Source: Amoebophrya sp. A120
Lineage: Eukaryota > Protista > Dinoflagellata
Assembly (NCBI GenBank): GCA_905178155.1
Contig: CAJINV010000005.1
Location: 4,713,394-4,777,393 of the forward strand
Direction of reading: 5' to 3'
Length of the DNA stretch: 64,000 nt
In this document: positions 23,901 through 62,300 of the stretch, piece after piece
Position numbering within the stretch: the first letter of the stretch is position 1
How the letters are laid out: each line of letters starts with the position of its first letter
The notes under the pieces: generated by a model
The model's database searches: none
The model's input: the letters and a program-made list of their open reading frames with translations, nothing else
Told to the model about the DNA's origin: nothing
Made by a program: the position numbers and the translations under genes

Positions 23901-26900
23901 CCACACCAGTAAAAGTCCGCTTCATCTTGGCCGGTCGTCCCGGAGCAGCAGGAGCATCTACAATTTTCTCGATGGAAATCAGGTTCTTGATTTTTTCCCT
24001 TTCAACAACAACATCGTCCGCAAAGTAGACTGCGCTTTCCGGAATAGACGCTCCTGCCGGGTGCACAGGTGTGATGTAATTCTTCTCATTTTCCTTTTCT
24101 TGGGCCAGACCCGCGAAGAGTTTCTCGAAATTCTTGTCGTAGAGGTTCTCCAACGCGTTGTCGTGATCACTAGTGTATCAACTGTAAAAAATGTCTGGGT
24201 CTGGAAGAATCCAACTTGTCATGCTGATTTTGGATTCTAAAAAAATCTGTATTGCATGAGCAGCAAAGAGCGTCCAAGTTTTGCTACACGCACAGAGCAT
24301 TTGTCATGCGGTATAGGCATCAGGAAGCGCTCACAAAATCTGTGATGATAGGGCATGCATCACAGACATCAGGAGTCATGCAAAATGTGCATGACAAACC
24401 TGGCAATCTTCAGACCCAGACATTTTTACATTTGGTATGGTTAATTCAGCAGAAAAGTCTGCGCTGTTTTGTTCAGCTTTCTCCGCACTCGGCTTGCAGC
24501 TGTCCGGGGAAGAGGAAATAAAACCGCTGCTGTTGACTACACTCTGGTCGTGCAGATGCGCGCCTCCTGACTCTTGATGCTCACCGCCATTTTTGTCCAC
24601 CACGTCAATGAAAGATCGCTTCGAGAGAATTTTCACGTGCGCCGCCTTGTGGAAGTAACTGGATTTGTTGTTCTTCGCAGACGCGTCGGACAACCCGGCG
24701 AAGGAAACAGTAGAGAAGTTGTTGGGGTTCTTTTCTTGCGTGTAGTCCGACGACCCGTGCAGTTTATTCTTCAAATTCTGCTGCAACACCGCCATCACTT
24801 TACTCTTCTTCGTCTTTTTCAACACCCGCGGCGCTTCCGGCGTGGAGAAAACGGAGTCGTTTTGCTTCTGGTCCTCTAAATCGACGCTTTCATCAACCCA
24901 ATCATCTTCCGGAGGGGACTTGTGCTGGTCCTTCGGAATGTTCGTAGCCGCAGTTTTTGGTTTATTCTTGTGCTCGTCGAGCTTGCCGTCGGCACCAGTA
25001 GCTCCAAAGAAACCGCCAAAAACCGACGTGTCGATTTTCCCAACTAAAGGGGTTCTTGTTGCAGTCGCCCCAATAAATAAACCGCCTTGAAAAACCGTGT
25101 CGATTTTGCCAACATCTAGAGAAGACTGCTCGTCCAAGGTTTCGGAGAGAGGGTGGACCACAATTGCTGCTTCCTTGTCATTTGTTCCCTCCGTAGTTTG
25201 TGCATGAGATGAACTTTGCTCTCTTTCCTGTTTCTTCTTGTCAACAACAGCCTTCACAACTTCCAAAAAGTCCGCTCCGGAATAGGACGACGCCCGCGGC
25301 CGCTTCTTCCTGTTGTTCTCCTCGTCAGAGGAAATTATCGGTGAGGAAGTAGCTTTGTGTAGCAGTTCGGCGATCGAGGCGGACGAACTGCGCGGTCGCT
25401 TGTACAGAATTAGGTTCTTTTTCGACTTGTTCGTTATGTCCTCGCCTTGGTCGTTTTCAACCACGACCGCAACCGGAGCCGGCGGCGGCGCCAACAGAGA
25501 TGACGCGGGTGCACGGTTTTTCGAATTCAAAGGGTTGAATTTCTTCACCGGGGCGTGTTTTTCGAAGTCGGAATCGGAATCTTCGGGCACGACTACCTTC
25601 GGTGGCGCTAAAGCCCTCGCCAAGGTGCGATTTTTCGTGCTTTCCGGGTTGAACTTTTTCACCGGGGCGGAATCGGAATCGGAATCCTCATCTGTCATTG
25701 TTTTGCCAGTTGTTCCGTCTGCCCGGGCAGCTGAAATTCCTCCTGCTTTTTCACAAGAAGTAGAGCCGGTTCTTTCTTCATTGCTAGTTCCGCGGACCGG
25801 CGTCTCTCCAATAATTTTCGGTGGCGCCAAGTCTTTCGCCAGAGTTCTGGTCGTACTGTTCTTGGGGTTGAACTTCTTCACCGGTTCGTCCTGTTCTATT
25901 CCGGACTCCTCCTGCTGAGCAGATTCAGTGCTGGCACCTTCTGCTTCATTCCCCAGCAGTACCTTCGGTGGCGCCAGATCTTTCGCCAAGGTCCTCGTCG
26001 TGGAAGAAGCAGGATTGAACTTTTTCACAGGCTCTTGTTGCACGACATCGTCCTTCTCGACGTCCATTTCTGTTTCATCTTCACCCACTGTAACCTTCGA
26101 AACTTTCGGCGGCACCAGGTCTTTCGCGAGGGTTCTGTTCTTGGAACGGCCTTGGTCAAACTTCTTCACCGGTTCCTCGTTTTCGCTTCGCTGATCAGCG
26201 TCTCCGGTCTCGCTTCCCGCAGAACAGCCTTCTTTTTGATTTTCTCCCGCAGCGCTAGCAGCCGTGTTCTTCTTCGGCAGACTCGGCGGCACCAAATCCT
26301 TCGCCGCCACACGCGGAGCACATGACTTCACACTTGGTTTCTTCTCTGGATCACCGAACGCCGACATCTCGGTGTCCACTCTGTTGTGCTGATCTCCCGA
26401 CTGTTCTTCATTTTGCTCTCCTTTCCTCGCCAAAATGCTCCCTAACGTCGGTGGCACCAAAGCACTCGCTTTGACCTTCGCGTATCCACCGCCGCCATCC
26501 GCACCACTTTTCTTCTCCGGACTGCAAAACCGGTTTCCCTCGGCATCGTATGGCGTTCTCAAACGTTACACTCTCAACTGTTACATGAATTTGTCATGCA
26601 AGACAACCTTAAGCCGCCAGATGATCAAGCTGCTTCGCATGACAAATAATCGAAAGGCCAGACAGAACCTAAATCCATGCAAAATTTGTGATGTAAGACT
26701 TGCAAGCTTGCCCCTTGCCCTATTGCTGTTTTTGCATGTTGACAAATTCATGTAACAGTTGAGAATGTAACAGTTGAGAACGCCATACATCGTGGTAACA
26801 CGTTGTTCCTGCGTCGGCTCCAACGTTCGCATACAGCTTCGCGTAGATGTCGGCTAGCGAGGCAGGCGGCGTCGGCACGAACACCTTCGGGGGGACGGTT

Positions 26901-29900
26901 TCGGACGCTGTCTGCTTTTTGTTCTCCTTGCAGCCTGCAGTTCGGTTCAGAAACTTCTTCACCGGACCCTCGTTGTCGGAGGAGGAATCGCTCTGGTTTT
27001 GTTCCGTATTGTCGCCAGTTTTGCTGTTCGACTGTTGAACACGATCGCCAGCGGGAGAAGAAAGCTCCTTTGGAGTGCCAGGAGCGTGATCCTCCGTTTT
27101 CTTCTCCACTGCAGAATCTTTATTCCTACCGTTGGAAGTAGTTTTGTGCTCCATCACACTGCTATCTGCCATACCGTTCAGAACCGGACTCACCCCCCGT
27201 TCGATGATCGGATGCACCATTCTTGTCGCGCTGATCGACCGTCGCGCCCCACCGCCTAACACCGGCGGCTTGCCCAGCTTCGGGGAGGGGCCGCGGGAAG
27301 TGGAAGCAGTCGTGGTTGGAACGCCAGTCGGAACAGATTTAATTTTCGACGCGTCTTCTTCTTTGGTATTCAACTTCGGAGTAGAGGTGGAGGTCGCTGT
27401 TGTGACATTAAAAGCCGCACGCTTCATCTTGTCAACACCAGCGCCAACAGTTGGCGTATTCGGTGCCGATGCCGAGGCGGTGATTCCGACAAAAGCCTTT
27501 GTACTCTTCTCCGCGGGTCGGAAACCTCCAGAAGCAGCACCGCTTGCCGGCGTTCCAAAACCAGATCCACCAAAACCACACCCTCTTGCACCAGAACTAC
27601 CAAGACCCAAACCAATTCCAGCAACACGACTGCCAGGTGTGCGATTGTTCTGCTTCAACCGGTCAAACCGCACGTTCCGTAGCAACTCGCCAAATTTCAA
27701 AGTCTCCTTCGTATCCGGATCCAACCATTGATTCCCGATCCCATCGGCAATGGTCGTCGGAATCGTCGTTAAAATAAACAAGGACGGGGTCCAGTCAAAA
27801 ACAGCAGCAGAAGTCGCGGACGCGCCTGGTCCTGCAGTTATCTCCTTCTGCAGCAGCGGCTTCAGAAACAACGTTAATTTCGAGTTCCGAAAGGGGATGT
27901 AGCTGACGGAGGAACTTTTTGTGCTCTGGCGCGCCGCGTGCCCCTGAATGTGGCGGGTGGTCGCGGTTAATAAACCAGAGTCCTTTGTGCAGGTACTGGC
28001 GGCGGTGCTCAGGGTGGAAGCGTTCAACAAGTTGCTGTTATTTACTCCCAATAAAGATGAAGATGTTGGCGTGCTTGCAGCAGCACCATGATCTCCTCGT
28101 GGCGAGTTGTGGAACTCCTTCGCTTTCACCTTGGATAACTTCTCCACGACCTCCCGCAAGGCGTTCAAACTCAGGTTCTTCCGGGTCGGGGAGGGGGTAT
28201 GCTGTCGGTTCTTCCCGCCCTTCATCTTCATCACCACTCTCCCCCCGTTCTATGCAAGAAAAAAGCTGCGTGAGTGTAAATCTGTAATGCAGAACACGCA
28301 ACAGAGTCACGCCTGTCATGCCAGACAGCCATGAAGTTCTCTTTTCGTGTGTGTTTTCCCTTACAAGCCACGCATGATAGGTTTTCTCTGTCATGTGGAG
28401 CAAATTTGTGATGCTGTCAGCCAAAGATAGTTACACGAACACAATTTTTTTTCTTGGATACGTTCTGCAGGAAGTTCAAACTCGGGCGGGACAATGGGGA
28501 ACGGGAACTTGCGGTGGGGGAAGAATCAAGGATGGTCGAGGAATTGTGCGTCGAATGGTAGTAATCTTGGTTTTTCACGTTCATCTTGTTGCCATGTTTA
28601 CCGGCCGTAGTTGTAGTTCCGGTCGGCAACAAATTCCGTTGCCAACTCCCCAGGTCGACGAAATGGAGTACCGCGGTTGTCGTGTTTGTTGAAGAGAAAG
28701 TTGCAGTAGATGAACTACCATTGCTAGTAATTACATCCGGCTTCCCAACATCATCCGACGGCGTCTCCTGCAAAACCGGGGAGTTTTGGTGGATGGAGAA
28801 AACCGCGTGTTGCCCCGGAAATTTCGGTTTGTCGAGTTTGCTGTCCCACAAGAGCGACAAAGCCTGCTTGATCTTCTCGCAGATGATGGAAGAAGAAGTG
28901 GGGGCTGTGGCTGAAATCGTGTTTGCATCCTCCTCCCCAACTAAAGGCACGTGCCGGGCGTTCTCGAATCGCGAGATTGTTTGGAGTTCCGGGGGTAAAA
29001 CCGCTTTCGGTTTGTACACGTCGATTTTCTCCTTTATCCTGTGCAAAAGTATCGTACTCGTAGTAATCGCGTTTATGCATGACAAATCTCTTTTTCAAAG
29101 TAAGTATAGCATGAGAAATTCCATTTGTGATGCTGAGCAAATTTGTAATGCGATTGCTACTAGTACGATGCTTTTGCATTTCATATCCTTCAAGCTTGTC
29201 TGATGTTTCTCCGCGAACAAATCGCAAATCTTTTCGTCCGGCAGGAAGGAGACAAAGGTGCAGGTGAAAGATGAGGTCGTGGGGGCGAACGAGAAGTCGT
29301 GTTGTAGTTGCAGTTTATCGCCATCCGCAGATGAAGCCAGCAGCTCTTCTAACTGTTTTAACACCCGCGGGATGATTCCGGAGGAGAAGAATTCCGGGCG
29401 GACCGCAGAAGAAGAACCCGAATCCGCATCGGTCGGCATAACAACTTCCTCTGTGCAGGAGTTCGTCCTGGAGCCACGGACTTCATTGCCCGTCGAAAGT
29501 AGTAGACTTTCCTCTCCGAACATCAACTTCGTCTTCCCGGTGTGTTCAGCGCCGTAGAGCACAACACCGCTGGACTTTTTCCCCGCGACGAAATCTTGGA
29601 TATAGGAGGAAATAGCGGCTTCGATGTGGTGGTTCTGTTGCTGTTGTGTGTGACCTGACGGTACAACTCTTTGCACTGTCTCGTCCTCCTGCTCTTCGGC
29701 AGCGCTTTTCCCGCCATTCGGGACGGCGGAAAGCACGATGGTGCGGAGAAAATTCTCGTCGAAAGCAGGTAGTTGATCGGCGGGTGGTTGCGATGAGGTG
29801 CTGCCGGGTACGGGTTCAGCAGGAGACGCTGCTATTTTTGCGTCCCCGTGCGGCACTCCGACCTTCATGTCGTTGTCCGGCAGAGGCGACCCTTCTGGCG

Positions 29901-29934
29901 GCGCGGTGGAATTGGTCGTCAAGGACGGCATCAT
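14943..29934 (-). CDS. Giant divergent kinesin-like protein (about 3,214 aa, 11 exons): N-terminal degenerate motor domain, long low-complexity tail with PVKKF..PPK repeats, C-terminal C4 zinc-ribbon-like motif
   Basis: Motifs in kinesin order: VVLYGAEHTGKTKLMFG, GIIPRVL, ICDLF, HAVFSI, LHFVDLGS, LSLNALREVV, IPFRNSKLTLFLKPLL, ETLKFG. Removing 10 introns (5,347 bp) from the 14,992-bp span leaves 9,645 bp = 3,215 codons, each junction in frame. Confidence 0.75.
15911..16181. mobile_element. TIR introner, family A
   Basis: TATCAAATGCAAAAATGTCTGGGTC ... GACCCAGACATATTTGCAACGCATA; direct repeat TTCGT; joins EPIDE-DDEDQ. Confidence 0.9.
16550..16700. mobile_element. TIR introner, family C
   Basis: TATGAACTGCAGAAGTATCGCACTCGTA ... 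TACGAGTACGATACTTTTGCACAGGATA; direct repeat CGCAT; joins SLSDA-ESEEQ. Confidence 0.88.
16969..17177. mobile_element. TIR introner, family D
   Basis: TATGGAGAGAAAAAAGTTTGTCAC ... GTGACGAACTTCTTTCTTTTGATA; direct repeat CTTCC; joins HYPEE-EEENNEK. Confidence 0.8.
17626..18624. mobile_element. TIR introner, family E (about 45-bp TIR), containing a nested MITE
   Basis: TATGACTTGTTCAACGTACCCAA(G/A)CGATATCGTACCCAAAAA inverted at both ends; direct repeat TCGGA at 17621-17625 and 18625-18629; joins HNSTSS-EEQILVA. Confidence 0.88.
17766..18484. mobile_element. MITE-like element with 51-bp TIRs nested inside introner E
   Basis: AAGCATCCACCGCTGGAGAGTACGACCCAGTCGCTCTACGGCTTCGCCTCG (17766-17816) is the reverse complement of 18434-18484 with one mismatch; flanks TATATAGTTG / ATTATAGCTG are only partly similar. 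Confidence 0.85.
19840..22529. mobile_element. Family A introner expanded to 2.7 kb by an internal satellite
   Basis: Left TIR TATCCAGTGCAAATATGTCTGGG, right TIR CCCAGACATATTTGCTTTCGATA; flanks CTGCA/CGGCA; joins ANALA-VGFSQ in frame. Confidence 0.82.
20010..22345. repeat. Tandem array, 160-bp unit, about 15 copies; identical centre, degenerate edges
   Basis: CACGAAAATCATCAGAGGCGG at 20501, 20661, 20821 ... 21941 at exact 160-bp steps. Confidence 0.95.
23308..23427 (-). other. GT-AG intron with introner-like geometry
   Basis: GAG|GTACAG ... GATATCAG|GCC; core 23312-23426 starts TATC and ends TA, flanked by CCTGA/CCTCC; contains TTTGTCATGC. Confidence 0.7.
24176..24437. mobile_element. TIR introner, family A (inverted relative to most copies)
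   Basis: TATCAACTGTAAAAAATGTCTGGGTCTGGAAG ... CAGACCCAGACATTTTTACATTTGGTA; flanks TAGTG/TGGTT; joins SAELT-SDHDN. Confidence 0.88.
26549..26787. mobile_element. TIR introner, family F (about 48-bp TIR)
   Basis: TATGGCGTTCTCAA..GTTACA.TCTCAACTGTTACATGAATTTGTCA inverted at both ends; direct repeat CATCG; joins TCYHD-AEGNRF. Confidence 0.9.
28251..28460. mobile_element. TIR introner, family G
   Basis: TATGCAAGAAAAAA ... TTTTTTCTTGGATA; direct repeat CGTTC; joins NFLQN-GGRVVMK. Confidence 0.82.
29035..29185. mobile_element. TIR introner, family C
   Basis: TATCCTGTGCAAAAGTATCGTACTCGTAG ... CTAGTACGATGCTTTTGCATTTCATA; direct repeat TCCTT; joins QTSLK-EKIDVY. Confidence 0.88.
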
Positions 29935-32900
29935 ACAGATTGAGACTTAATTTTGTCCAGGTCTGTTGTATCAAGCTGATGCAGCTGAATCAATACCAGA
30001 CGTCGTTTTAACTTCTAGTAGCAATCAACATAGTATTACCTTTTTTATTTCGCGTTCAACAGGGGAAATCTAAATTTCGTTTGCTTGCCAGAAGTGGTGA
30101 TAATACTCCAAGGCCTCGTGATGCTTCGAGAGAGCAAAAACGAAGAGCTTGCACTGTTTTACGAGGTGAATAATCACAAGAAGTTTGATTCTCGATTTCC
30201 ATTCGGTGCCATTTTTCTCTCGATCTAGACTGTCGACCCGCACACCACATCGCTCTCGCGCATTCTAAGACGAAAATCAAAATGCTGCTTCTGGAGACCC
30301 TACTTACGCCACGCTTCCAAATTGAAAACGAAGACAAACAATTTTCTTCTCATTTGCAGCTGCTCGTCACTCGTTCCACCCATTTTTTAACACTCTCTCA
30401 CGAACAGATAACAAAAAGAACAGAAAACCGAGCTTCTGGCTTTGACGCGTGCGTACTGAGCACCAACGATGGGTGGTCCTGTGAAGAAATTGCCAATTTA
30501 TACATGTCGTGGGAATTGGTGCCCAGAAAGAGCGCGCAGCCATCAAAGCAGCACGGCTGGCAACGATTGCCGCTCGTGCGCAATCTCCCATCATGGTGCC
30601 AACCATTGGGCGAGATTAGCAACACACGGACATCGCGATAGCGAGCTAAAGACGTCGGCGGCCTTCCCGACCTGCGCCCGATCGATAGTGGGCGCCGCGT
30701 TCCTTCCGCGGCAACAGGGGGCGCGCCAAAGCACCCACACCACGAGCGGACCAGCCCGGCAGCGCGCTTCCTCCGATGGCGGCCGGCTGACCTGAAGGGG
30801 GCCCCGCCCCACACAATGGCCGAACGGGCGGCGCTTGGCGGGGCGGCAAAGGCCGGCCCGGCTCGGCAGTGGCGCAACCAAGCGCCGCGGGGGCGTTCGC
30901 AATCGCGGGGGCGCCTTCATCGCTCGCACAATTTGAGCAACCAACTGAACATCTTGGCGGCCAAGCTTTTTTGGTTGCGCCTTGCGCCCGGCCGAAGGCG
31001 CGCGCGCCCCCCGTCCGTCCTCGCGGCGGGCCGTCTCGTCCCCGCGCAGCGAGGGACGCTGCAACAGGAATGGCGCACGGAAGGCGCTGGGACGAGTCGC
31101 GCCCATACTGAGTTGCAGCTGCTGCCTTCTGGCTTTCTTCTTCCTACGAAAAATTCGGCAGCAACGAAAATTATAATGATACTCTGTTCTCCGAAAATTA
31201 TAATACATGGAGATTTATATGAGGCAACTTTCTTTCGTGGCCAACACTGCTCCACTCGGGCGGAATGCTCGGAAGGACACATCACTCTGAAGCAAACGCC
31301 ACTACCTCGTAAGGAATACCCAATCCTTGTAAATTTGGTGGCGCTGCTGATTGCAATACAACCCCTCGAGCTCTCTCCTTTTGGAAACACTTTGCCGCCC
31401 TCCGAACATGAAGATACAGACGCACGTCGAAGACAGCGAAACACCACTTCTATCTTCTTTAATATTTCCGTGCGTCGTTTATTGCAACTGACGCTTCAAT
31501 CTCATCTCGTCACCATCACTCGTTTTATCCTTATTTCTGGAACAGAAAAAGAACACCAGAACGAACTGGCCCCGGAAAGGACTGCAAGAGAAAAAACGAC
31601 CCTGATCAACAGATCAGTAGAAAAAGTGTTAACGACCTAAACCTGCTCGTGGGTATCTTTACTAAATGCTTACATACGCAATACACACACAGGTAAGACA
31701 CGCGCACGAAGGTGCGCAGCGAGCGCGTGCGGCCAGAAACACTCGGTCGAGCGCAACGTCACGACGGCTAGAGGCGCGGGCGGCGCGGGCCAACGCGGCC
31801 GTCGGACAGGGCGTAGGCCAGCCCCACGGGATCGCCCGGGCTGCGCACTGTGACTTCCCACTGGGCAGTATCACTGCGCCCTCTCACAACACACCAAGAG
31901 CGGGCTCTGGGCCGAACGAAACAGAGCCCACCCCTACCGGCGGAAAGGTAGGCGGACCGCGACCACAGCCGGCCCAGGGGGGAGTTAGTCGCAACCGCCG
32001 CAACGCTGCTGGAAACCCCACCAGAGCCAGCGAGGGGCGCCACGCCATTGCTCTGGCTTTCGGTAGCAGAGCCCGGCAAGCCAGCCGCGCCTTTCTTTGC
32101 TCATGACTTCGGCGGGCCCCATACTCGTCTACGGTGTCTTCGCCATGCTTCTTCTAGGTGTCGGGGGCGGGCAGGCCGCGCTCGCCCACTCTGCCTGGCT
32201 CCTTGCCGGCGAGCAGGCCGCGTGGCGAAGAGCCAACGGAAACAAGGAAGGGCCACAAAGGAAAGCCCACGCAGACGCTCGCAATCGCGCGCGCAATATA
32301 AAAGCGCCACCGCTTCGCCCTTCCGCTCCTGTGTGTTTTGCAGCTTCTGGGCCCCCACAGGCGACCGGGCCGCGTTCGTCGAAGACGTCTGTGAGCACTC
32401 GCAACGCGCTCCGCGGAGCCCTCGCATTGTCCGGCCCTCCCATACACAATGCCGAGGCCAGGCGGGGCGCTGCGGTGTGGCGAGCGGACTACGCCACGCA
32501 CTTCATTGCGTCGCTCGTCCACAGAGGATGGATTCATTGGATCGCTCGTCCGTTGTAGTGTTGCGCCTTGTGTTCACACGATAAAACCAAGATCTCGACC
32601 CTCGCCTCAATATGCCACATCCATGACCAAGCACAACTCCCTAAGTAGTTGCGGACAACGCCACTCTTACTCTCATCTCCGCTCCCAGAAAAAACTACTC
32701 AAATCTAGAACACTCCGGTGAACAAGAGTGGAGGTCACCGCTTCGCTGAAATCTTGATGCTGCGCAGCAGCTTTGCCGAGAATCAGACTGACAACTACGT
32801 AAGTGTTCATTTTACACACACATCAAACAGATGGCTCAACATGTCTCATGCGCACTATTATATCAATCTGGGTTTTCATCTTACAGGCTTTGAGTCTCAT

Positions 32901-33433: not shown

Positions 33434-36400
33434 TCAACCACTCCTGCGTCTACCGCACATGAAGATTCTACGCCTTTTGCAAAAATGCGTATGAAGATCA
33501 CACACCACATAGTAGTCGTCGAATTCGCGCAGGCGGTGGGTAGCGTCCTCCTCTTCGCTCTCCGTGTTGAATAATTTCAAAAAATCCCTCTCCCCCCGCT
33601 GCAACTGCTGATGTATCGCCGGTGTTGCGGCACTGGAGGTTCCCAGTTGTGCTGAGTTGTCTCTGAAAGGATTTGGCGCCCGGTTTTCAACCGATGACTC
33701 GTAGGCTGTGCTGTTAAAAAGCGTCGACCTGCTAGAATCTGCGGGCAGGTCGAAGTTGTGCCTCCGAAACGCCATTCTTTGCGTGCTTTCGACGTTCGAG
33801 AAGATTTATGCATTGCAAAAATGTCTGGGTCTGGATGATTCCGGGATTTGTCATGCACTTTTTCCAAGCTCCCGGAAGTCTGGAATGCGGCACCTAACAT
33901 CGCAGGCTCTGCCGCCCTTTCGTGATGCCTATTCTGCATGAGAAATACCCTGTCAGCATGGCCAGAAGGCAGCACCTTTTGCCAGTCATGCAACACAGAT
34001 CTGTGTACGATCCGCAACTCGCATCACAAGTTCGGATCCTTCCAGACCCAGACATTTTTGCATTTGATAAGATTGTAGCCATGGCATCCACAGGAAAAAA
34101 AAAACCAAACACAGCATGACCATCATTCGCAGTCGCATTTGCAGGTTGTAAGTATGACGAGAACCTATAATTGCATCATTATCAATTCATCTACGATCAA
34201 ACATATTCCACGCTTTCTTGCGGCTGACATCTTGGGTCAACAACTACACAGGATGGTTTTTGATTTTTTCCCAGAACGATAAATGGAGCTCAGCGGCCTG
34301 CGTCGCTTATCCAGATACCACTCTTTCCGGTTGATGCGATAGTGGTTTCTATCAAATGCAAATATGTCTCGGTCTGGAAGGATGCAAGGTTTGTCATGCA
34401 CAGTTTTCATGACTCCTGACGTCTGTGATGCATGCCCTAGCATCACAAGTTTTGTGAGGGCTTCCTGATGCCTATACCGCATGAGAAATGCCCTCTCGCC
34501 GTGGCAAAACCCGTACCGCTTTTGCTGTCCATGCAATACAGATTTTTGTATTATTCAAATGCAGCATCACAAGTTGCAACCTTCAGACCCAGACATATTT
34601 GCATTTGATAGTTTCCCGGGCCGCGCAAAAACGTGCCATCTTCAGCAGAATGTGGAACGTGATCTCCGGACGGCGTCGTCGTCGTGGATTCCGGTTGTAT
34701 TTGTGGACCAGTTCCTGATGTTCCTGCTGTCCCTGATGTGCTCGCAGTAGAACCACCGCCGGCAAAACTGGAAATAAAGCTTCTCTCCGAAGCTGTCCGT
34801 AACGCATCCATGGCCAACTCGACAGGAGATCTTCTAGAAGTTCGGCTTTGATGTGACTCTGACTGTGAGGAAGCACCAGCTGCAACCGTACTAGCAGTGC
34901 TGTCCTGCGTTGTACTATCGGGAAGGAACATCGCAGACCTGATCCACTCCGGATCGGCAAACGGGTTTGGTGTTCCCGAAGTAGTAGAAAGAAGAATTGT
35001 GCTCGGTGCTGGTTTGGACAAAAAATTTTGCAACCAGTCTTCGAGATGACCAACATTGTTGCTACTCGTGGTCCCTGCGCCCGTAGAAGTTCTTGATGTT
35101 CTTCTGTCAGCGGCTGAGTCATCTTGTGTTTCTTGTGCCACGCCTTGGACACCTGATTCTGCTTGCGCTTCTTGCGCTGTCACTCCTTGCACTTCACCTT
35201 CAACCTCCTCCTGGTCGATGAAATTATCAACCAAAGGCAGCTCCGTTAACTGAAGAGACACCGCCTGCTGGGCGAGGATGTAGTCGCGACTGGGTTCATA
35301 TCAAATGCAAATATGTCTGGGTCTGGAAGATTGCCAGGTTTGTCATGCATATTCTGCATGAGCCACGAAGCCTGTAATGCATGATCTAGCATCACAGATT
35401 TTTTTTAGAGAGCTTCCTAATGCCTACTCCGCATGAGAAATGCCCCCTCCGCATAACACAAACTTGACTCTTGTTGCTGGTCATGCAATACAGTTTTTTT
35501 GGAATCCAAAGACAGCATTACAAGTTGCACTCTTCCAGACCCAGACATATTTTCACTCCATAGTTCAGCAAACCCCTGCGGTGGGAGGGCGCCGTCTTCG
35601 TACTCGAGCAGCTTGACCAAGTTTGTGCCTCGGCGCTCGCGCCGGTATTCCTGCAGTGGCGGCTTGTTGCGTTCCCGGCAGGTCAACGCGTCGGACTTCC
35701 TAAGCAAAAACGCCCCACCCCAGAGCTGTCATGGAAATGCGCAATGACAGGAACATTTGCAATGCGCATCTCCATGAGAGACATTTCCAGTCGTGTTCTG
35801 GAATTTGTAATGCTGTAAACAGGATGACAAACTGGATTTCTCATATGGCTGCCGCCCTTGCTAACCAGCACTGCGCTGCAGATAGAAACTTGTCATGCAC
35901 AACTCCCAAAACTTGCAGATTTGTGCTGCAGATTTACCAACTTCACTATGGGGTGGGGATGTTTTTGCTCAGGATACCCGGAGCACCGTGAGCTGCGGCC
36001 ACGTTGCCCCACCAATATTGCTCTTTGTCGTTCAGGTCTCCTCCTTCTTTGCGAATAGTAAAGTCGCTCGTCACGAGTATGTATCCACTTGGAGAAAGCG
36101 ATGATCTGGGTCTAGCCTATTTTTCAGAACCTTGTGCTGCTGCTGAGTCGTGGGTGCGTGAAGTACAACTAGAGACGCTTGATTTATTGCAAGCACAGCA
36201 CCACTCAAGGAGCATGAAAAGCTTTTCAACGTTGTCTCAGTCTCACGACACACAGCACGCATGACAAACGAAACACAAACGGCGTTTTTGCATGAGAGAA
36301 GAACAAGTGCCGCTTTGTCGGTCATGCAACACAGATTGAGATTCGAGGTACCGTTCTGGAGCACATGAAAATGCAACACAAGCAAGCGTTTTTGTTTGAC

Positions 36401-38311
36401 AAGTTCAGCTTTTATTACAGACCCATTCCTCTGTCTTCATGTGTCCAATGCCATAGCATGCACACGTCTGTGACCCGGTCCCCGGATGCCTCCTCCTCCC
36501 CCGCAGCTTCTTGCCCCCGCTCCACCTCCTGCGCTACTTGACTATCACGACCCGTCTTCAGGACGTGGCCGAGGTCCGATGTCCTCACCGCTTTCGGCCA
36601 TGCCGCGGACAGCCTCGCCCGTTTCCCCACGGCAAAATTTTTGATCAGCCTCTCCCGCTTCGCATCCCTTTCCCACCCGTTGAAGACGGGTCCGGGGGGG
36701 CGTTCAGCCGTAGCAGTTGTGCCCAACAGCCGGCGCATGACCATGCGGTTTGGCAACCAAAATCTCCCTCGTGGCCCCGCCTTCCAAAAGTCCCTGCTCG
36801 GAAACACCTGACGCAGCGGCAAGTGGGCCGCGGGGTAGCCACCCTTATGCACTGCAAAAGTATCGCACTCGTAGTGATTATCGCAGTCATGCATTAAATA
36901 ATCTATCAAGGTAAAGGCGCATTACAAATGGCATTTGTAATGCTGAGCAAATTTGTGATGTCCTTTATACTAGTAAGCTACTTTTGCAGTTCATACCCCT
37001 TCCCGACTGGTAAGTCTTCCACGAAACGGTCGAGATAGAAGCCGCGAGAGGCCAAGTATCATGTGTAAAAACGTCCCCACCCCAGAACAACTCTGCATGC
37101 TGGAAATGTTTCTCTTTCTCATGCGGAGCCCCATGAGATGCATCCTCTAGCGGTGTTTTGGAATTTGTCATGCTCCAATCAGCATGATATCCTAGATCTG
37201 TGATGCTGCTTAGTTAGATCAAACAGCCCTACACTACGAGTCCAAATTTGTCATGCAAAAAAGCCAAAGCCTGTAGAATTGTCTAGCCGATTCTCCATCT
37301 TGACTATGGGGTGGGGACGTTTTTACAGAGGATACCAAGGAGTCCGTGTTCAGGGCAACCACGCACCTATCCCCGTTGCTCTCGCGGTATCAAATGCAGA
37401 AATGTCTGAGTCTGGAAGAATGCATGTTTGTCATGCTTGTCTGGCTTAGCTCTTAAATCTGTCACGCACGTTACCCAAGAGCTCCATTTTTCTGTGATGC
37501 AGAAGCGCAGTTTGTCATGCAGAATAGGCAACACCTAGAAGCTCAGAAACTTGTCATGCTGAGCCAGCATTTGTGGCCTCATCATGAGACGCCACCCAGC
37601 ATCACAAGTTTCCTGACCCAGACATTTTTACATTTGATACGCGGTACTCCGTGCCAATTTCGGTCCGGGCAATCGGGAACGTGCGAAAACGAAAATCTGA
37701 GAGAGTGACAGATTCTGAGTACGCCCGGAAAACCGCTCCGCCGTGCAGGAGGTCCGACGAGTTTTTTCCATCGGTCCCCGGGGCGTTCTCCTGGTGCACT
37801 TGGCTTTCGAAAACCGTTTTCAGGAAGGCCCGCATTTGCTCATCGTACGACAGTTCGAGTTCCTCGTACGAGTGTTCGAGTGCCGCATTTTGCACCTCGT
37901 TGTACTTGTCCTCGACGACAGCCGAATTCTCTATGCAGTGCAAAGACCGCTGGGTCTTCTACAAGGATCCAAACTTGTCGTGCTGTGTCTCAATCGCACA
38001 AAAAGAAAAATCTGTGTTGCATTCATATACAGCAAAAATTACAACCCACTTGCCACACATAGGGCCAATTTCTGATGCGGAATAGTGATCGAGAAGCCCT
38101 TGTCGCGCATTCTGTGATGCTTCAGGTTGCATTCCAGACCGTCTTTCGTCGTGGTGTACGCGTAGTTTTACACGATGCATGCCAAACCTTACACTCTTCC
38201 AGACCCAGAGATGTACATGAATTTCATATTCTCATCCACAAACCGATTCCCGAACAGCCCCGCTTGCATGTGCGTGGATACTATGGAAGCGACAGAAGAA
38301 GAAATCTTCAG
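33434..38311 (-). CDS. Multi-exon hypothetical protein with 10 introner introns; either the continuation of the kinase-TM gene or a separate gene; 3' end uncertain
   Basis: In-frame joins across all ten elements: FVDE-NSAV, TEYR-ESNG, TDSL-ASRG, PVGK-GGYP, DVCM-LVTS, HGAP-..ALTC, GFAE-PSRD, GPGN-HYRI, IYRS-VDAM, MATI-FSNV. No family motif recognised. Confidence 0.55.
33807..34069. mobile_element. TIR introner, family A
   Basis: Family A TIRs; direct repeat AGATT at 33802-33806 and 34070-34074. Confidence 0.9.
34094..34271. mobile_element. Putative atypical inverted-repeat intron (A-rich TIR, 3-bp direct repeat)
   Basis: GAAAAAAAAAACCA ... TGGTTTTTGATTTTTTCC; CAG at 34091-34093 and 34272-34274; removal bypasses a stop and joins IYRS-VDAMAT. 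Confidence 0.45.
34350..34610. mobile_element. TIR introner, family A
   Basis: Family A TIRs; direct repeat GTTTC. Confidence 0.92.
35299..35562. mobile_element. TIR introner, family A
   Basis: Family A TIRs; direct repeat GTTCA. Confidence 0.92.
35696..35976. mobile_element. TIR introner, family I (left terminus and direct repeat decayed)
   Basis: TCCTAAGCAAAAACGCCCCACCCCA ... TGGGGTGGGGATGTTTTTGCTCAGGATA; removing element plus 5 nt restores frame. Confidence 0.75.
36082..36455. mobile_element. TIR introner, degenerate
   Basis: TATCCACTTGGA ... TCCAATGCCATA; flanks GTATG/GCATG; joins DVCM-LVTSDF. Confidence 0.65.
36846..36995. mobile_element. TIR introner, family C
   Basis: TATGCACTGCAAAAGTATCG ... 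CTACTTTTGCAGTTCATA; flanks ACCCT/CCCCT. Confidence 0.85.
37057..37334. mobile_element. TIR introner, family I
   Basis: TATCATGTGTAAAAACGTCCCCACCCCA ... TGGGGTGGGGACGTTTTTACAGAGGATA; direct repeat CCAAG. Confidence 0.88.
37388..37639. mobile_element. TIR introner, family A
   Basis: Family A TIRs; direct repeat CGCGG; only about 48 bp of exon separates it from the previous element. Confidence 0.88.
37932..38228. mobile_element. TIR introner, family A (degenerate)
   Basis: TATGCAGTGCAAAGACCGCTGGGTC ... GACCCAGAGATGTACATGAATTTCATA; direct repeat TTCTC. Confidence 0.8.
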
Positions 38312-38539: not shown

Positions 38540-41500
38540 TTAGCACCAAACTCCAGTCAAATTGAAAGTTTCCTGTTCAATCATCGCTTCCATACTATAC
38601 AAGCCTGGTCCCTCGAAATTGGCGCCGTGGTATGCCTCGGCCGGGAGCGTTGGGAGCTGTTGAGATGTGAGCGCAGTATCGAAGAAAATTGCGTCGTGGA
38701 TGCGTTGGGCGTCGCGCGTATAGTAGTAAACCACCTTGGGGTGCGCAAGTGCGGTCCGTGGAAAAAATCGGAGGCTGGTTGTCAATTCAAGAGACATCAA
38801 TTCAGCGTCGTGGTCCAAATCGCTAGTGCTTGTTTCAGCAATCGCATTTCCGAGCGCGATTCGGCGCAGTAACAGTGTCCAAAACATGGTATCCAGCATG
38901 GCCCTGGCTTTCTCCTCGGTAAACGTGTAAGTCCGCTGGAACTCTGGCTCGATGGAACTCATCCTTTCCAGGTCGAGATCGAAAAAAAGGAAAAATGCGT
39001 CCAGGTCCCAGGGATGAACGCGGACTTGCAAAAGGTCTTCAAACATCTTCGCCGTCCGGAACTTCCACGCTAGCAGTTCTTTCACCGACCAATTTGGATT
39101 TGCACTGACCCACTGTTTTTTCATAGTCCACCTCTTGGACACGTCCCCGCCAAATCCCCGGTGTACGCGCCACATGGCCGGCCGCACGGTCTCGTCCAGG
39201 AAGTCGCTTGTCAGGTAGTCGTTCGACATATTGATCGTCTCATCTGCCGACGTTGTCGTGGAGGTGAACGTGCTAAAGTTCGTCAGCATTCTATCAAATG
39301 GAAAAATCGCCCCGCTTCATATTGAAAAGAACGTTTCTGATGCTGGATTTGGATACACAAATCACATCTGTGTTACAGTAGAGGAATGCACGCAGATCCT
39401 GAGCCTAGGCGGGGGCCTTTTGGTGTAGGTGCGTAGCATGCTAGACGGCTACCCTGTAAGCCTTACAGCATCACGCATCGCTTCCATAACGTGGCGGACT
39501 GCCTGCGTGTGCCTTCTTGCAAGACAGGTCCGACTTGTGGCCACAAATCTGCATCGCAAATTTTCAGATGGATGCGTTTTTAATATAGGGAGGGGGGTGG
39601 ATTTTTCCTCACAATACATTCGCATCTGAAGGTAATCCCGAACGGAATTTTGGGAAAAGCCGCCAGGCTGGAGGTTGCCGGCCTCTATCAAACGCAAATC
39701 TGTGTGGGTTTGGAAGATTGCGAGATTTGTCATGCGGGTCCGGCATGACTCTGCCCTCTGTATTGCGGGGCCGCAAAGAGCTCCTTTTCCCTGTCATTCT
39801 TCAAAAACGCACTTTCTCATGCGCAACAAACAACTCACGACCACGGAAAAGACTGGCCATGCTTGGCAGCGCATTAGTACAGTGTGCTCATAATTATTCC
39901 CTAACTTGCATCACAACCTCCCAGAGGACCCAGACATATTTGCAGTGCATATCCGCGTCGTAAAGAAGTCTCGGATTTTCCACGCTCTCCACGTAGGGCC
40001 CGTACACAATTTCCTTCGGAAACGGGGGCCGCGGCTTCAACCTCGCGTAGGAAAGGTGAATTTTGTCGTCGCGAATGTTTTCGAGAAAATGATGCTGGAG
40101 GGTCAGGTTTTTTAGCGCCGTTGGAAGAAGTTGATTGTTCTGCGCAGCTGGGACAGCGGGAGGAGCAGTAGAGCCATCAGCATGCTGAAGATTCTCATTG
40201 TCATGCGCTGGTGGACTTCTAACAGGGGGCGTGCTTGCTGGTGTTAATATGCTTCTCCGATTTATTGTCAGCTGCATTTGAAGGAAAGACATGTCGGATT
40301 GGATTGCCGCGCCACGCCGTGAAGAACGGTCCGGAAGAACATGGTCTTCATCGTGGACACCGTCATCCCCATTCACCTTCGCATGGTGCACTTTTTCTTC
40401 CGCAAGCTCGTCCTGCAGCCCCGTCGAGAGAAAAGAAGCTCGTCCAGCAGGAGCTCCAGCTTGGGCAGAACCAGGCGATGGCGTCTGGGTCTGAAAAACT
40501 TCCGGAAGTGTCGGGCCCTCTATCCCAAACTCACTCAAGTCATACCTCTCCGCCAGCAGACTGGCGACCAATACCTCGTCCCCGCGAAACCGGTTCCACC
40601 GCAGCTCCTTTTTCAGTTCCTCTGTCAGCCGCTGCGACTCCCCGGACCGCATCGGCGCGGGACGCTCCCCTTGGGTTTTCCCACTGGGTGGGACCCACTT
40701 CGCGGGAATTTTGGCGCGGACAGTCGGGGGGATGGCTTTCGGTTTCGGCGGGGCTATAATCTGCGGCGCTTGTTGAGGTGGACTACCTGATGGGGGGGTA
40801 GTAGAACTACTACTACCTGGATCATTCGCCCCACCATCTGGTGCCGGTCGTGCTCCTCCATCTCCTCGCTGCGGACCAATCAAAAGCTCGACATCGGGAA
40901 CAATGCGCCGACTCGGTATTCCTCCACGAGCTCCCCCGGGTCCTGCGCCGCCTGTCGTTCCTCCAAGCGGCTGACCTGGTGCGGGCGCGCCGCCTGGAGC
41001 AGAAGCAGGTCCTCCCAGCGCCGGTGCTGGTTCTTGCTGCATACTACCACCCCCGCCGGCCGCGGTACCACCTCCGGGATGAAGAAGAGTTTGCTCCTCC
41101 TCGTGAGTCGTGGACGACGTCTCTTTTTTCTCGTCATTTTTCTGTTCCTTCGGTACCGAAAAGACCAACACTAACGTGATCGTCAGTGCAACGACGATCA
41201 CAGAAACCACGACGGCTCCGACCGTCCAGACCTTCCAGTTTTTTGCGAGCGCAGATGTGGCAGTGGCATGACCTTCCTCGTCGCTGTGATCCTTAAGAAC
41301 GCGATCCGTTTGGAGATCGTGATACTGGGAGTTATCATAGTCTGCAAGCCGTTTCAGAAAGTCGTCAGAGCGTTTTGCTTCATCATCCGGTTGTAGAACA
41401 AGTTCTTGTTCCTGTATAAGATCTTGCTCGTCACCAGCATCGGCGTTCTGCAGTTGCTGCTGTTGCAACAGCAGCATCTGCGCCATAGCCAATCCCTGCG

Positions 41501-49846: not shown

Positions 49847-51053
49847 CTAAACGGCTCTGCGCCCGTCGTCGTGACGGTGGAATTCCCTCTTCATCAACTG
49901 TTCAATCCAAAACCCGGAGCGCTGGATGTTCAGCTTTTTTTCCAGCTTTTTTCCGATCTGCAGGTAGGATTCCGACGGTCTAGCCAGGATGAACACCTCG
50001 GGATCCGCCAATCCCGCCATGTCGAAAAGGAAAGTCTGGAACTCCGTCCCGTGCATGTCGCGTAATTCCCGGTACTGCTCCGCGACGGCCTGCTTTTGCT
50101 CTACTTATCATATGAAAAACTGTCCAACCAGCAGATTTTTACCGGAAGTGTCTTGCTCCTGTTATTTCATTCTTCCGTGCGACCACGCAGACACTATCAC
50201 TTATTGTTTTAGTTTTTTCCTTTGCTTCATAGAAAATCAAGAACATCAAGACCACTGCACCTTATGTCTTCTGCTGCATTGCGACAGGTGGCACATGCCA
50301 TACAGCGGGGCAAGCATTCCATGCACCGGTGGTCAGGTACGTCTCCACCACACGCGCCCCGCGATGGAAGTCGTCAGCGAGTTTCTTCAGAAAGTCCAGC
50401 TGCAGTGCGTGCGTATAGCGGTGCTGCGCCGTCTTCTCCCACGTCGCGTATCCAATCTCCTCCACATTGACATGGCATATAGCACAGAAAGACACTAGCA
50501 CAGTAGCGTTGTACTTCATTGATTTATTCACGGTTTCTTTCGATTCCGCGTGTAATAAGCACCAGTGGTTCACTGCGGAAGAGGCTCAACAGCGCAGAAC
50601 CCTCCTTCTGGATTTTTGCATGAGTTTTTTCTGTGTTGATAAAGCGCATGACATTGATTGTTTTTCTGTCTACCACCTGATAAAAAATCAATAAAAACGC
50701 AGTGCTAGAAAGATTTATTTCTGTGCCAACATAGCGTCCATGCGGTAGAGATATGCGCGGAAGGTCTTGCGCAGCGACTCGACCTCCGCGAGGGTATCGT
50801 CCAAGGCCTTGATCAACACCCTGGTCTCGGACAAAGCAGCGGCCGCATCGATCTTGTTTTCTTCTCGCAAGGAGACGCTAAGGCTGTCGAGCCACGCTCG
50901 AGAGGCCTCCGAAAACCACTTGTTCGTCAGGGTCATAAGTCGCTCCCGGAAGAGACCGCCAGTCGTCGAGTCGACGACAAGGGGCGGCGGTTCGGCAACA
51001 CCGGTATTGTTCGCATTTGCTCGCGCAAACATGTTTTTTCCTTTGTGCACCAT
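49847..51053 (-). CDS. Possible gene(s) of unknown function; three short protein-like ORFs (51053-50715, 50573-50262, about 50100-49847), exon structure unresolved
   Basis: Co-oriented ORFs with plausible amino-acid composition; no motif recognised and no junction confirmed. Confidence 0.3.
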
Positions 51054-58700: not shown

Positions 58701-59300
58701 ATTGTCCCATCAAAAAACTCCGACTCATCGTTGCTGAACTCCCGAACAGCGGGAAAAAGCCACGCGCGCGCCAGCAAACCTCGTCTGTTGCGTTTCACAA
58801 TCGTACTTCCAAATGATCGACAGGGTATTTGCAGTGTCGTGACTGTTATGTATTGATTCAGATTCTATAGAAAAACTCAGCTCGTCTTGTTGCTATTTCC
58901 AGCTCGTTCATCGATGTCACAGTCGTGGATTCATCCATTCCTTAAAAAATTTCTTTTCGAACGATCATCTTTACGCCTCATTCACATATGAAGGGATTCA
59001 ATATTCGTATTCCTGTCCTTCCTAGAAAAAAATATCGAATCTTGTCTGGGACATTTCAAAAGTGGGAAGTTTCAAAAATGCTATGTGGCCATAGATAGAA
59101 AGAATCGCGAGGGACCAACACGGCCAATTTCTGGTTTCGTTCCGTTAGGGACAGACTAGCTTCCTCGAGAAAAGATATTGAACTGCTGAAGGTGCGTCCA
59201 AAGACACCACTCCTTATTTCTCTCCCAACCGTATAATTTCTTTCCTTTACATCAGCTCCCCCGTCTTTCCGCTCCCACCACTGGCCAAACGCCTTTCTTC

Positions 59301-62300
59301 TCAGCGTTGAAACCATTCCGCCGGCCCCAACTCGTCCGTATCCGCCCTGTTCCTACTTCCTCCCCCGACTCCGCTGGTATCCGTATCTTTATCGGCAGCA
59401 CTCGCGGCGGCTCTTTCGCGGGAGGCTTTGTGGGAATCCTCGAACGGCTGTTGCACTTCGTCGTTGACCTCCTCAACTACTGCGGGATGAGCTTTTGATG
59501 CCGCTTCAACACCCGGCCGTAAATCCCTCTCCTGATATTCGGCTCCTTCTGCCCGATGCAGGCTGTCGTTGGCATTATTTCTCTGGTTTGAACTACACTG
59601 CTGCTTCGATTTTATTTCCCGACCACGTCCCCTCGGGAGCCTGTTCGACGCAATGGGCATACCCATGCCGAGGCAGACGCTCATTGCGGTTCGCTCCTGA
59701 AGCATCACGGGAAGGAGAAACCGGTCCAGCACTTGCTGTTTCTTCCTCGCTATCAACTGCAAAAATGTCTGGGTCTGGAAGGACGGAACTTGTGATGCGC
59801 ATCTTACACCACACAAAAATTCCTCATGCATAGACAGCAAGAGTTGCCCACTTTTGTCATCGAAAAATAGGCGATTTGTCATGCGGATTAGGCATCGACG
59901 CAGCTTCTCAAAACTTGTAATGCTAGTGAGACCTTGCTTGCCAGAACTTCCGGGTCATGGAAAAACAGCATGACAAAAATGTCCATCCTTCCAGACCCAG
60001 ACACTTTTGCATTTGATACTCGCTTGCTCAGACGAGGAACACAACTCTCGGTCTGGCTTGACGTGGTTGGATGATGAGCTGCTTGACGAGGATGAACTGT
60101 TGGAAAAGGATGAAGAGGAATTGGTTTTCTTGTTCTTTTTGCGACGACGGCCGTTCATTTCATCTTGAAAAGCTTGCTCGTCTTCTTTCGCGGTGTCTAC
60201 TAGTTGTACATTATCCTCGCAGAAGGCTTTATTCTTGCTCCCAGCGCTCCTGCAAGAGTCGTGATCTTTTCTTTCCCAAGAAAGCCAACTCGAAGCGGAT
60301 GCTGCCGTAGGTGCAGGGTCAAGAGCCGGAGCTTGTTGCTGTTCCAATCCGTGTAAAAAGTCATTTCCTCGTGTCGTGGTTTGCTTGTTCGTCCGGTAAT
60401 CAAAATCCCGGGAAGTAGTCGACGTAGCAGCTTGGTGAGGCAGGCTAGACGAGCCAATGTAGTTGTTGTTTTTGATCATGATGTCATGGTCGCTGTTATT
60501 CGTCATCTTCATGTCAGTATTGTCACTACCTTCGTACGTGTCCACTAAATCCCGCCAATACGCGTCTTCGTCCTCTGCCGCGAGGGAGGGAAAGGATTTC
60601 CAGGAGGAGTATGGATTGCAAAAATGTCTGGGTCTGGAGCAGAAGTTTGTCATGCAGATTTTGCATCATCCATGAGGTCTGTGATGCATGCCCGAGCATC
60701 AGAGATTTTGCGACGGCTTTCTGATGCTCATACCGCATGAGAAATGCCCTCTCCGCGGAGCACAAATTACACCTCTTTTGCTGTTCATGCAATACAGATT
60801 TTATGTAGATTCCAAAAGTAGCATCACGAGTTTGTACTCTTCCAGACCCAGACATTTTTGCATTTGATAAAGAGTAGTTCGAATCGATTGGAGGCTCGTG
60901 GTCGATTTCCACGTGCATTTCATCTTCATCACCAGCACCGTCGCCATCAACAGTGTGGAAAAATGCAGCATGCTGTGGGTTCTCTGCCGAGTCGGACACT
61001 ATCCACTTTCCTTCACTAATCCTACCGTCGGGATTTTCCTTCGCAGTCGAGGATCCGACTAGAAGCAATTCCTCCACTTCCGTAGACGATTTAGAAGACT
61101 TCCGCGAGGAAGAGGAAAATCCGCTCGAAGAACCCTGAAGCAAAGCCCCCCGCAGGTTCGCTTCCGGACCAGGAACCAAAAGATCATGCGACGACAGAAC
61201 ATCGTGATCATTTTTTCCGTCACGATTTTTTCCCGCCTGCGGACACTGGTGGAAGTCGCGAGTAGTAGAGATGAAAGTTGGCTGCTCATCCAGTTGTTCG
61301 TCCACGTCCTGCTGTTCAACTACAAAATCTGTAGTTTCTACAAGCGACCGCTGCTCCGCCGATGCGGACTCCTTCGTCGAGCAAGAACTGGCAGAAGGGG
61401 CGGCTTGGCGAGTAGTTTTGATCTTTGTTCCTTCTCCTGCACTTTTGAGCTCACCTGGAAGAACACTGATGTTGCTTCTGCTCTCCACCTCCATGTCCAC
61501 CTCTTCCACCTCTAACGCCACTTTGTGTCTGCTCGCCGACCAGTTCGACCTGTCTTGCATCATTTGCTCCTCGCCGTGCTGTAGCTGGTTCTGGCTCTTG
61601 TGATGAAAAGTAGAGATTTCCGACTCCAATTGCGTCAGCCGGAGCAAGATTTCCTGTTCTTCTACAGAAAAGTCTGCTAAATCTGCATGATCGTCCTCTA
61701 GGACCTCCGCGACCGGATGAAACTGATCTTGCTGCTGTGACACGGCGGGGCGGAGCATGTTGGTGTTTTCCGCAGCGGGATGATCATGAACACCCGTACT
61801 ACCACTACTAGTACTTCCACTTCCTGGAAGCTGCGCGTGATTTTGATTATCCGCCTGATGACAGGAACGCGACGATTTCGATTTGTCATGCGACATGGGC
61901 GCGTTGTAACTTGAACTTCTGCTTGTACCTCCGGTAGTCTCTGCTTCTTGCGGTCGTGGTACTACACCGCCGCGGTCTCTCTCGCTCGCAGTTGTCGAAA
62001 TCTCATCGACGGAAAAATTTCTGGCTTTATTGAGTACTACTTCACTTGACGCGCCAGGAGCTCGTGCACCTCCGTGATCGACGAATTTTATATCCGTCTG
62101 ATTATCATACACCCATGTTGATTCAGAGATGGCTATACCTGCTCCACCAGCTCCGAGAACTTGAGAACTACGGTGGTCGTTGTTTCCTTCATGCTCCTGC
62201 GCGGAGGTCTTTGTCGACTTTGTCTTGCTAGAAGAGGAAGAGGAGGAGGATGCAGACGCTTTCGTCTTTCCACGACCGCCCGCTGCACTCCCTAAGTTCA

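Follow-up and report, generated by a model that had tools for sequence, protein, structure and literature searches.

In a 64,000-nt stretch of the genome of the dinoflagellate Amoebophrya sp. A120 (assembly GCA_905178155.1, contig CAJINV010000005.1, positions 4,713,394 to 4,777,393 of the forward strand; hereafter the window), the coding exons of the host genes are interrupted by introner elements, dispersed repeats that DNA-like contigs contain and transcript-like ones lack. The best explanation of the observations as a whole, which we consider probable, is that these elements are DNA-transposon insertions resembling MITEs (miniature inverted-repeat transposable elements), with TA...TA ends, terminal inverted repeats (TIRs) of ~30 nt and a 5-bp target-site duplication (TSD), located in minus-strand coding exons, and that each element is removed together with 5 nt in both orientations of its interior, the limits of removal being likely set by the paired TIR ends alone.

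The elements were defined by combining matches to the TIR core, a scan for TA...TA ends with TIR and TSD, and joints supported by reads. Since the scan alone was noisy (243 candidates), a candidate was retained only if it had both a TIR and support from an open reading frame (ORF), or a read-supported joint. Assembled contigs of two kinds from runs of one organism, DNA-like (set X1) and transcript-like (sets X3, X4 and X5, from one sample), were compared to the window over positions 24000-43999 and 48950-64000. The resulting inventory comprises 26 complete TA...TA elements of 150-2690 bp (most of them 150-325 bp) and one element truncated by the window end. The dispersed repeats have the ends TATCAAATGCAAAAATGTCTGGGTCTGGAAG ... 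CTTCCAGACCCAGACATTTTTGCATTTGATA, and 30 occurrences of the TIR core motif were counted in the window (GC ~50%) as compared with 4.3 expected, a count of 30 being reached in none of 100 shuffles. The termini are TAT...ATA in 25 of the 26 elements, the exception (24176) having TAC; the TSD is perfect in 19, has one mismatch in three and two or more mismatches in four. The TIR extends over 22-45 aligned columns in 16 elements and is shorter or degenerate in the remainder; in family A, it reads TAT-CAAATGC-AAAAA. The two arms of a TIR often differ at positions 4-9 (TATCAAATG versus TATG(G/C)NNTG) and agree at positions 1-3 and 10-32, and which arm bears the variant is independent of both the interior orientation and the direction of transcription. 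Overall, the elements combine TIRs, a TSD of fixed length and multiple copies with an apparent lack of coding capacity, as MITEs do, and no transposase domain was found among the ORFs scanned in the window. Some starts given in the preliminary description of this DNA were off by one (e.g. 33807, 35299, 42922 and 60610), and the duplicated sequence is a stretch of 5 nt, not TA.

The elements are listed here by family with the orientation class of the interior (F or R), the TSD and the evidence for removal.

44301..44562, family A reference copy, F; TSD TTGCC; between the kinase G-loop and the ALK lysine motif; ORF evidence
15911..16181, family A, F; TSD TTCGT; inverted relative to 37388, 39686 and 59751; ORF evidence only
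33807..34069, family A, F; TSD AGATT; next come a micro-exon of 6 nt (34075-34080) and another skipped stretch, ending at 34282
34350..34610, family A, F; TSD GTTTC; an X3 piece begins at 34611
35299..35562, family A, F; TSD GTTCA; an X3 piece stops at 35293
42922..43192, family A, F; TSD GTCCG; inside the kinase gene; ORF evidence
60610..60869, family A, F; TSD AGGAG / AAGAG; 60605-60869 skipped (265 nt = 260+5) in X3-X5
63868..64000, family A, F, truncated by the window end; transcript contigs depart from the window sequence at 63867
19840..22529, family A, R; 2690 bp, enlarged by a tandem array (160-bp unit); ORF continuity is the only evidence
24176..24437, family A, R; TSD diverged, TAGTG / TGGTT; transcript contig skips 24171-24437 (267 nt = 262+5)
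37388..37639, family A, R; TSD CGCGG; ORF evidence only
37932..38228, degenerate candidate of family A, R; flanks too short for the frame test
39686..39951, family A, R; TSD diverged; skip of 39682-39952 (271 nt) deduced from X3 contig pieces
59751..60018, family A, R; TSD CTCGC; 59746-60018 skipped (273 nt = 268+5) in X3, X4 and X5
1718..2039, family B; TSD TCCTG; inverted relative to 39292 and 43246; modest ORF support only
39292..39616, family B; TSD CATTC; an X3 piece stops at 39286
43246..43559, family B; TSD TTCCG; between kinase subdomains VIII and IX
16550..16700, family C (~150 bp); inverted relative to 29035 and 36846; ORF evidence only
29035..29185, family C; X3 skips 29030-29185 (156 nt)
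36846..36995, family C; TSD ACCCT / CCCCT
26549..26787, other TA..TA introner; X3 skips 26544-26787 (244 nt)
28251..28460, other TA..TA introner; X3 skips 28246-28460 (215 nt)
50106..50302, TA..TA introner; 50101-50302 skipped (202 nt), with 1 nt of positional ambiguity
50478..50733, old TA..TA introner; 50474-50734 skipped (261 nt), with zero positional ambiguity
17626..18624, TA..TA element of 999 bp; perfect TSD TCGGA; TIR of 42 columns with 41 matches; ORF continuity only
element at 16969; ORF evidence only

The interiors of the copies in the window were compared all-against-all after a 35-nt trim at each end. The alignments gave a consistent two-class orientation graph, with local scores of 95-131 in the stated orientation versus 14-50 in the opposite one. 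Family A (~262 bp) split 8:6 (F:R, with the truncated copy at 63868 counted in F), and families B and C each split 2:1. Among the individual pairs named in the preliminary description, copy 24176 is indeed inverted relative to both 44301 and 34350, its positions 24187-24411 aligning, when reverse-complemented, with 44328-44552 (225 nt, 81% identity) and with 34377-34584 (208 nt, 82%). The claimed inversion of 59751 relative to 42922 is likewise borne out by the segments 42921-43007 and 43093-43155, which run opposite to 59933-60019 and 59787-59849 (78-81%). In family B, positions 1819-2039 of the copy at 1718 run opposite to 43246-43466 (221 nt, 76%), and 39292-39505 is direct to 43246-43459 (75%), as expected if 39292 and 43246 are co-oriented. 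Within the window, the interiors of families A and B are therefore not all co-oriented with transcription.

All host genes were claimed to lie on the minus strand, in agreement with the long ORFs, which, after removal of the elements, appear on no other strand, and with two GT..AG introns that read on the minus strand in a transcript contig. The removal of element plus 5 nt placed each of the 24 elements entered in this analysis inside a minus-strand ORF of 157-1902 codons, in line with the proposed restoration of the frame in both orientations. As a control, the extra removed length was varied from 0 to 8 nt; the +5-nt frame class (extra length 2, 5 or 8) was the best for 23 of the 26 elements. 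The flanks of the other three (33807, 34350 and 37932) are too short for this control, and the removal of 33807 and 34350 is backed by RNA-like contigs. For the element at 1718, the +5 class gives 68 open codons per side versus 40-46 in the other frame classes. The main host genes are as follows.

14946..23313, minus strand, host gene; 1341-codon ORF once five elements are removed
23359..29946, minus strand, host gene; 1902-codon ORF once four elements are removed; covered by a 10.7-kb X3 contig
42443..45584, minus strand, host gene encoding a protein kinase; 760-codon ORF once three elements are removed
59304..62595, minus strand, host gene; 918-codon ORF once two elements are removed; the transcript extends upstream via GT-AG introns

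Among the other minus-strand ORFs obtained after removal, one of 1028 codons spans two elements, and four more measure 318, 299, 190 and 157 codons. The kinase gene provides a check at the level of the protein. Its exon between 44301 and 43246 matches the Pfam families Pkinase and PK_Tyr_Ser-Thr over profile positions 29-176, the G-loop and the ALK lysine motif flank element 44301, the APE and DCWALG motifs flank the pair 43246 and 42922, and the order of the kinase motifs is regained by the removal of element plus 5 nt. The kinase alone scored above the Pfam cut-off. No Pfam family was found in 16 of the 18 exon translations or in any of the 12 further ORFs, the matches to Kinesin and IBR being weak, below the Pfam threshold, and disregarded. 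Within proteins of 315-1003 aa, a search with the 573-aa exon 60877-62595 yielded no homologue with E <= 0.001. Such a scarcity of families and homologues agrees with the fast evolution that the text of Farhat et al. (2021) describes for proteins of this lineage.

The two longest elements both lie in the first of these genes. The 999-bp element at 17626-18624, far longer than the members of the other families, sits in the 1341-codon ORF. The interior of 19840-22529 contains a tandem array (20010-22371) of ~15 units of 160 bp with identities of up to 98%, and the removal of 2690+5 nt yields a frame that stays open for over 250 codons to either side. Judging from the sequence, this copy would be an introner intron of 2.7 kb, enlarged by satellite repeats.

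The comparison of contigs with the window revealed exact skips, each equal to the element length plus 5 nt. Over 24000-43999, the 10.7-kb X3 contig (depth 195) contains the joints 24170>24438, 26543>26788, 28245>28461 and 29029>29186, and other X3 pieces begin or stop at 34611/35293 and 39286/39953. Over 48950-64000, the joints 59745>60019, 60604>60870, 50100>50303 and 50473>50735 are present in X3, X4 and X5. Within family A, explicit joints thus cover the R copies 24176 and 59751 and the F copy 60610, and contig pieces cover the R copy 39686 and the F copies 33807, 34350 and 35299. Two more joints in X3-X5 read CT..AC on the plus strand, which is GT..AG on the minus strand, and correspond to ordinary introns of ~155 nt; both types of intron are processed in one mRNA.

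62778..62932, minus strand, ordinary GT..AG intron; on the transcript contig that carries the skips at 59751 and 60610
about 62482-62639, minus strand, ordinary GT..AG intron; on the same transcript contig

The DNA-like set behaves in the opposite way. The depth of X1 is even (~25-30) in unique bins, including stretches where the depth of X3 is zero, and its contigs run across element borders (e.g. 24405-26573, 34587-35320 and 39706-42949). X1 retains every element-flank border displayed, at a depth of 20-28 typical of a single copy, and has zero depth for the joined form of each of the four X3 joints listed (24170>24438, 26543>26788, 28245>28461 and 29029>29186). The sets X3-X5 lack both the GT-AG introns and the elements and have a depth that depends on the gene. 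They thus behave as RNA, and we infer from this behavior that they are RNA, the runs themselves having been marked "RNA?" by guess. Since the elements are present in X1 and missing from X3-X5, which are free of GT-AG introns, their removal occurs at the RNA level and is blind to the interior orientation. The earlier opinion that excision from DNA is the less likely route agrees with these data.

Some exons between neighboring elements are very short. A 6-nt micro-exon, GTAGCC (34075-34080), lies between introners, and an X3 contig joins 33806 to 34283 through it; other exons between adjacent elements (37340-37387, 37001-37056, 39617-39681 and 43198-43245) are 48-65 nt long. RNA-like contigs from other loci match an element and diverge at its ends (59751, 60018, 60614, 60857 and 60870). 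Element sequence is thus also found in RNA-like assemblies, stemming from precursors not yet spliced, from introns after their excision or from carried-over DNA.

The position of the cuts relative to the element was assessed in those elements in which the two repeats of the TSD are no longer identical, which pins the joint; the register is given as the number of nucleotides removed before and after the element in the gene sense. A GT..AG placement is allowed by the TSD in none of the 26 copies, and a GA..AG or GC..AG placement is possible in five only. The copies 24176, 60610 and 50106 each permit (0, 5) or (1, 4); 39686, reconstructed by contig-piece arithmetic, permits (1, 4), (2, 3) or (3, 2); and 50478 permits (1, 4) only, its removed piece having the ends CT..CC. 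The register (1, 4) is the sole one that fits all five informative copies, the excised piece being N + TAT...ATA + NNNN. We therefore hypothesize, from these five copies, a fixed cut geometry with one cut 1 nt 5' of TAT and the other 4 nt 3' of ATA in the gene sense. Under this geometry, no intron of the 26 would end in AG.

The sense transcripts of one R copy (24176) and one F copy (44301) were folded and gave free energies of -95.5 and -112.3 kcal/mol (z-scores of -6.0 and -7.25), none of 200 shuffles being as good. Both predicted folds have a terminal stem built by the TIR, of 29 bp (9 + 20) in the case of 44301. Because both interior classes are removed in genes of one strand, a strand-specific signal in the interior cannot be required; this inference of the preliminary description is upheld by the absence of copies with opposite interiors from the transcript-like contigs. 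Of the structure-guided RNA excision that it had suggested, the RNA level is supported by X3-X5 versus X1, and a role of structure in guiding it would fit the predicted 29-bp stem and the z-scores of -6 to -7. In the proposed mechanism, the paired TIR ends alone would define what is removed, with the predicted stem of ~29 bp bringing the two cut sites together and the hairpin serving as the presumed recognition feature. Owing to the symmetry of the TIR, an insertion in either orientation would present identical ends to the transcript, which would account for the survival of both in exons. As to the catalyst, we slightly prefer a hairpin-directed spliceosome to a distinct endonuclease-ligase pathway of the kind suggested for euglenids. 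A more specific version, in which a dedicated excision system uses the hairpin as a fixed ruler (1 nt 5', 4 nt 3'), disregards the interior, never uses AG and has converged with the nonconventional splicing of euglenids, is a tentative idea to which we give rather less than even chances. If true, the hairpin ruler would explain the tolerance of tens of thousands of insertions in exons.

The most serious competitor of removal by paired ends is a relaxed but otherwise ordinary spliceosome that reads linear signals in the TIR arms, the hairpin being incidental. The proposed signals are a 5' N|UAU(C/G), resembling /GUAUG, and a U-rich 3' arm with UUGAU (YURAY-like); the removal would be independent of orientation because both arms occur in every copy. 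The preliminary description had made an exception for signals located in the symmetric TIR, and the 3' TIR arm does give every copy the same U-rich ...CAUUUUUGCAUUUGAUA, which a spliceosome might read. This explanation is favored by the GT-AG introns in the same transcript and, according to the text of Farhat et al. (2021), by a near-complete set of spliceosome proteins and by direct plus inverted repeats in 15% of the canonical A120 introns. Several of our own observations also weigh against guidance by a hairpin. Under the 1+4 geometry, 11 of the 26 introns start with GT, as a spliceosomal 5' site would; the geometry itself comes from five copies, one of them reconstructed by arithmetic; copy 39686 also permits GA..AG and 44301 permits GC..AG. 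The terminal 3 bp are unpaired in the predicted fold of 24176, and mismatches between the TIR arms carry no signal of selection for RNA pairing, with those giving G.U and those giving A.C in the sense transcript being equally frequent (18 versus 18). The evidence for the RNA level has its own weak points, as the RNA label of X3-X5 was guessed and applies to a single sample, and only 4 reads of the raw RNA run X9 and 0 of X10 matched 24000-43999. On the other hand, a reader of linear signals is difficult to reconcile with the complete lack of AG at the 3' ends under the sole fitting geometry, with CT..CC in the unambiguous case, with a candidate branch A merely 7 nt from the cut, and with the U1 small nuclear RNA not being found in A25 or A120 in the analysis described by Farhat et al. 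(2021). On balance, we consider this alternative unlikely.

Two further alternatives would not involve splicing. An excision of the elements from DNA in the transcribed nuclei, similar to that of the internal eliminated sequences (IESs) of ciliates, would be in line with the TA termini and with the fact that removal exactly regains the pre-insertion sequence. However, the contigs that are free of elements are also free of GT-AG introns, their depth varies by gene and has gaps of zero depth, X1 is evenly covered at ~25-30, keeps the borders and has none of the four joined forms listed, and the duplication is 5 nt and not TA, which makes this explanation very improbable. That the host genes are dead, or the assembly faulty, and the elements not truly removed might be suspected from the 16 of 18 exon translations and 12 of 12 further ORFs with no Pfam family and from the exon with no homologues. 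Transcript contigs of 7-10.7 kb at depths of 63-195 carry the exact skips, refuting this suspicion for the copies compared with contigs; the ORFs are up to 1902 codons long, and few homologues would be anticipated where proteins evolve as fast as the text of Farhat et al. (2021) describes. We give this last explanation practically no weight. Removal of MITE-like elements from RNA, likely by their paired ends, is thus the explanation that we retain.

Outside the elements, the window contains two stretches (52406-52802 and 55072-55468), 2666 nt apart and 74-75% identical, in minus-strand ORFs of 537 and 489 codons; these probably represent a tandem pair of paralogous genes, neither with a Pfam family. 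Tandem arrays are located at 4100-6555 (period 225 bp), 46505-48890 (period 298 bp, 8 copies, 88-90% identical) and 1-336 (period 168 bp); several reading frames of the 298-bp array are open, on both strands.

The phenomenon as such is already known, since the introners of A120 have been published and introners in either orientation are known elsewhere. According to the text of Farhat et al. (2021, BMC Biol), non-canonical introns make up over 60% of the total in Amoebophrya A25 and A120 and conserved boundary dinucleotides are absent, the genes lie in co-oriented blocks, and the introner elements form multi-copy families with inverted repeats of 8-20 nt and direct repeats of 3-5 nt, for which a hairpin model was given. 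The inverted-repeat motif described there for A120 (TAT, seven less-conserved nt and at least three A), the inverted repeats, the direct repeats and the non-canonical removal from RNA are all found in the window, and the elements described here very likely belong to the same system, with essentially no difference. The seven less-conserved nt of that motif include the positions 4-9 at which the two arms often differ here. Gozashti et al. (2025, Dataset S2) list 58 introner families of A120, including fam12 (331 copies, 260 bp, TIR 33), fam17 (149 bp) and fam16/fam21 (305 bp), with mostly non-canonical sites; the TIR strings of the window were not found in the searched supplements of Gozashti et al. 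(2025) and Farhat et al. (2021). The pipeline of Gozashti et al. (2025) required 5'-to-5' and 3'-to-3' alignment within families, which could split families or under-count copies in the opposite orientation. Neither Farhat et al. (2021) nor Gozashti et al. (2025) count, in their texts, figures aside, how interiors are oriented relative to the host strand; the main text of the former has no instance of "strand" and uses "orientation" of gene blocks only, and the legend of its Fig. 3 states that the exact position of the intron border is unknown. What the present analysis adds is the orientation tally with both classes removed, the evidence against excision from DNA and a candidate for a fixed cut register. 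The irrelevance of the interior orientation, together with the single register suggested by decayed TSDs, narrows the possible mechanisms for the removal of the non-canonical introns of Amoebophrya, more than 60% of all its introns according to the same text.

Introners of other lineages offer a parallel to the elements of the window. Introners that create introns in either orientation were reportedly described by Huff et al. in 2016. Elements that can be spliced in either orientation appear in the text of the preprint by Roy et al. (10.1101/2020.10.14.339549) for Polarella glacialis, itself a dinoflagellate, and are attributed there to Aureococcus anophagefferens, in both cases with canonical sites. 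Like those in the window, they are DNA transposons with TIR and TSD spliced from either strand. In contrast, they use G(T/C/A)..AG sites, as this text describes, drawn from the TSD and the element ends; in the window, GT..AG is possible in 0 of 26 copies, the unambiguous case is CT..CC, and the broader G(T/C/A)..AG placement characteristic of canonical-site introners (Micromonas, Aureococcus, Polarella and Symbiodinium) is available in only 5 of 26. The IESs of ciliates share the TA termini, the transposon origin and the precise, ORF-restoring removal, yet they leave DNA, whereas the elements of the window stay in DNA-like contigs, are absent from RNA-like ones and have a 5-nt duplication. The introns of hemistasiid diplonemids differ in being 37-91 nt long and C/G-rich at the 5' end. 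A functional likeness also exists to the nonconventional introns of euglenids, a lineage of Euglenozoa and not of Alveolata, which, as presented in the texts of Nomura et al. (2025, PNAS) and PMC11282704, likewise have non-canonical borders, pairing of the ends, TSD-like repeats and a likely MITE origin, and likewise need a terminal signature only. The Euglena signature N3-CDG ... CHG-N5-6|R given in these texts is absent in the window, where the ends are N-TAT-CAA... and ...TTG-ATA-N4. The euglenid introns leave the transcript later than conventional ones, in the form of full-length circular RNA. In both systems, to the extent covered by these texts, the two cuts are staggered with the 3' cut farther from the helix, at 3 nt and 5-6 nt in Euglena and at what appear to be 1 nt and 4 nt in the window.

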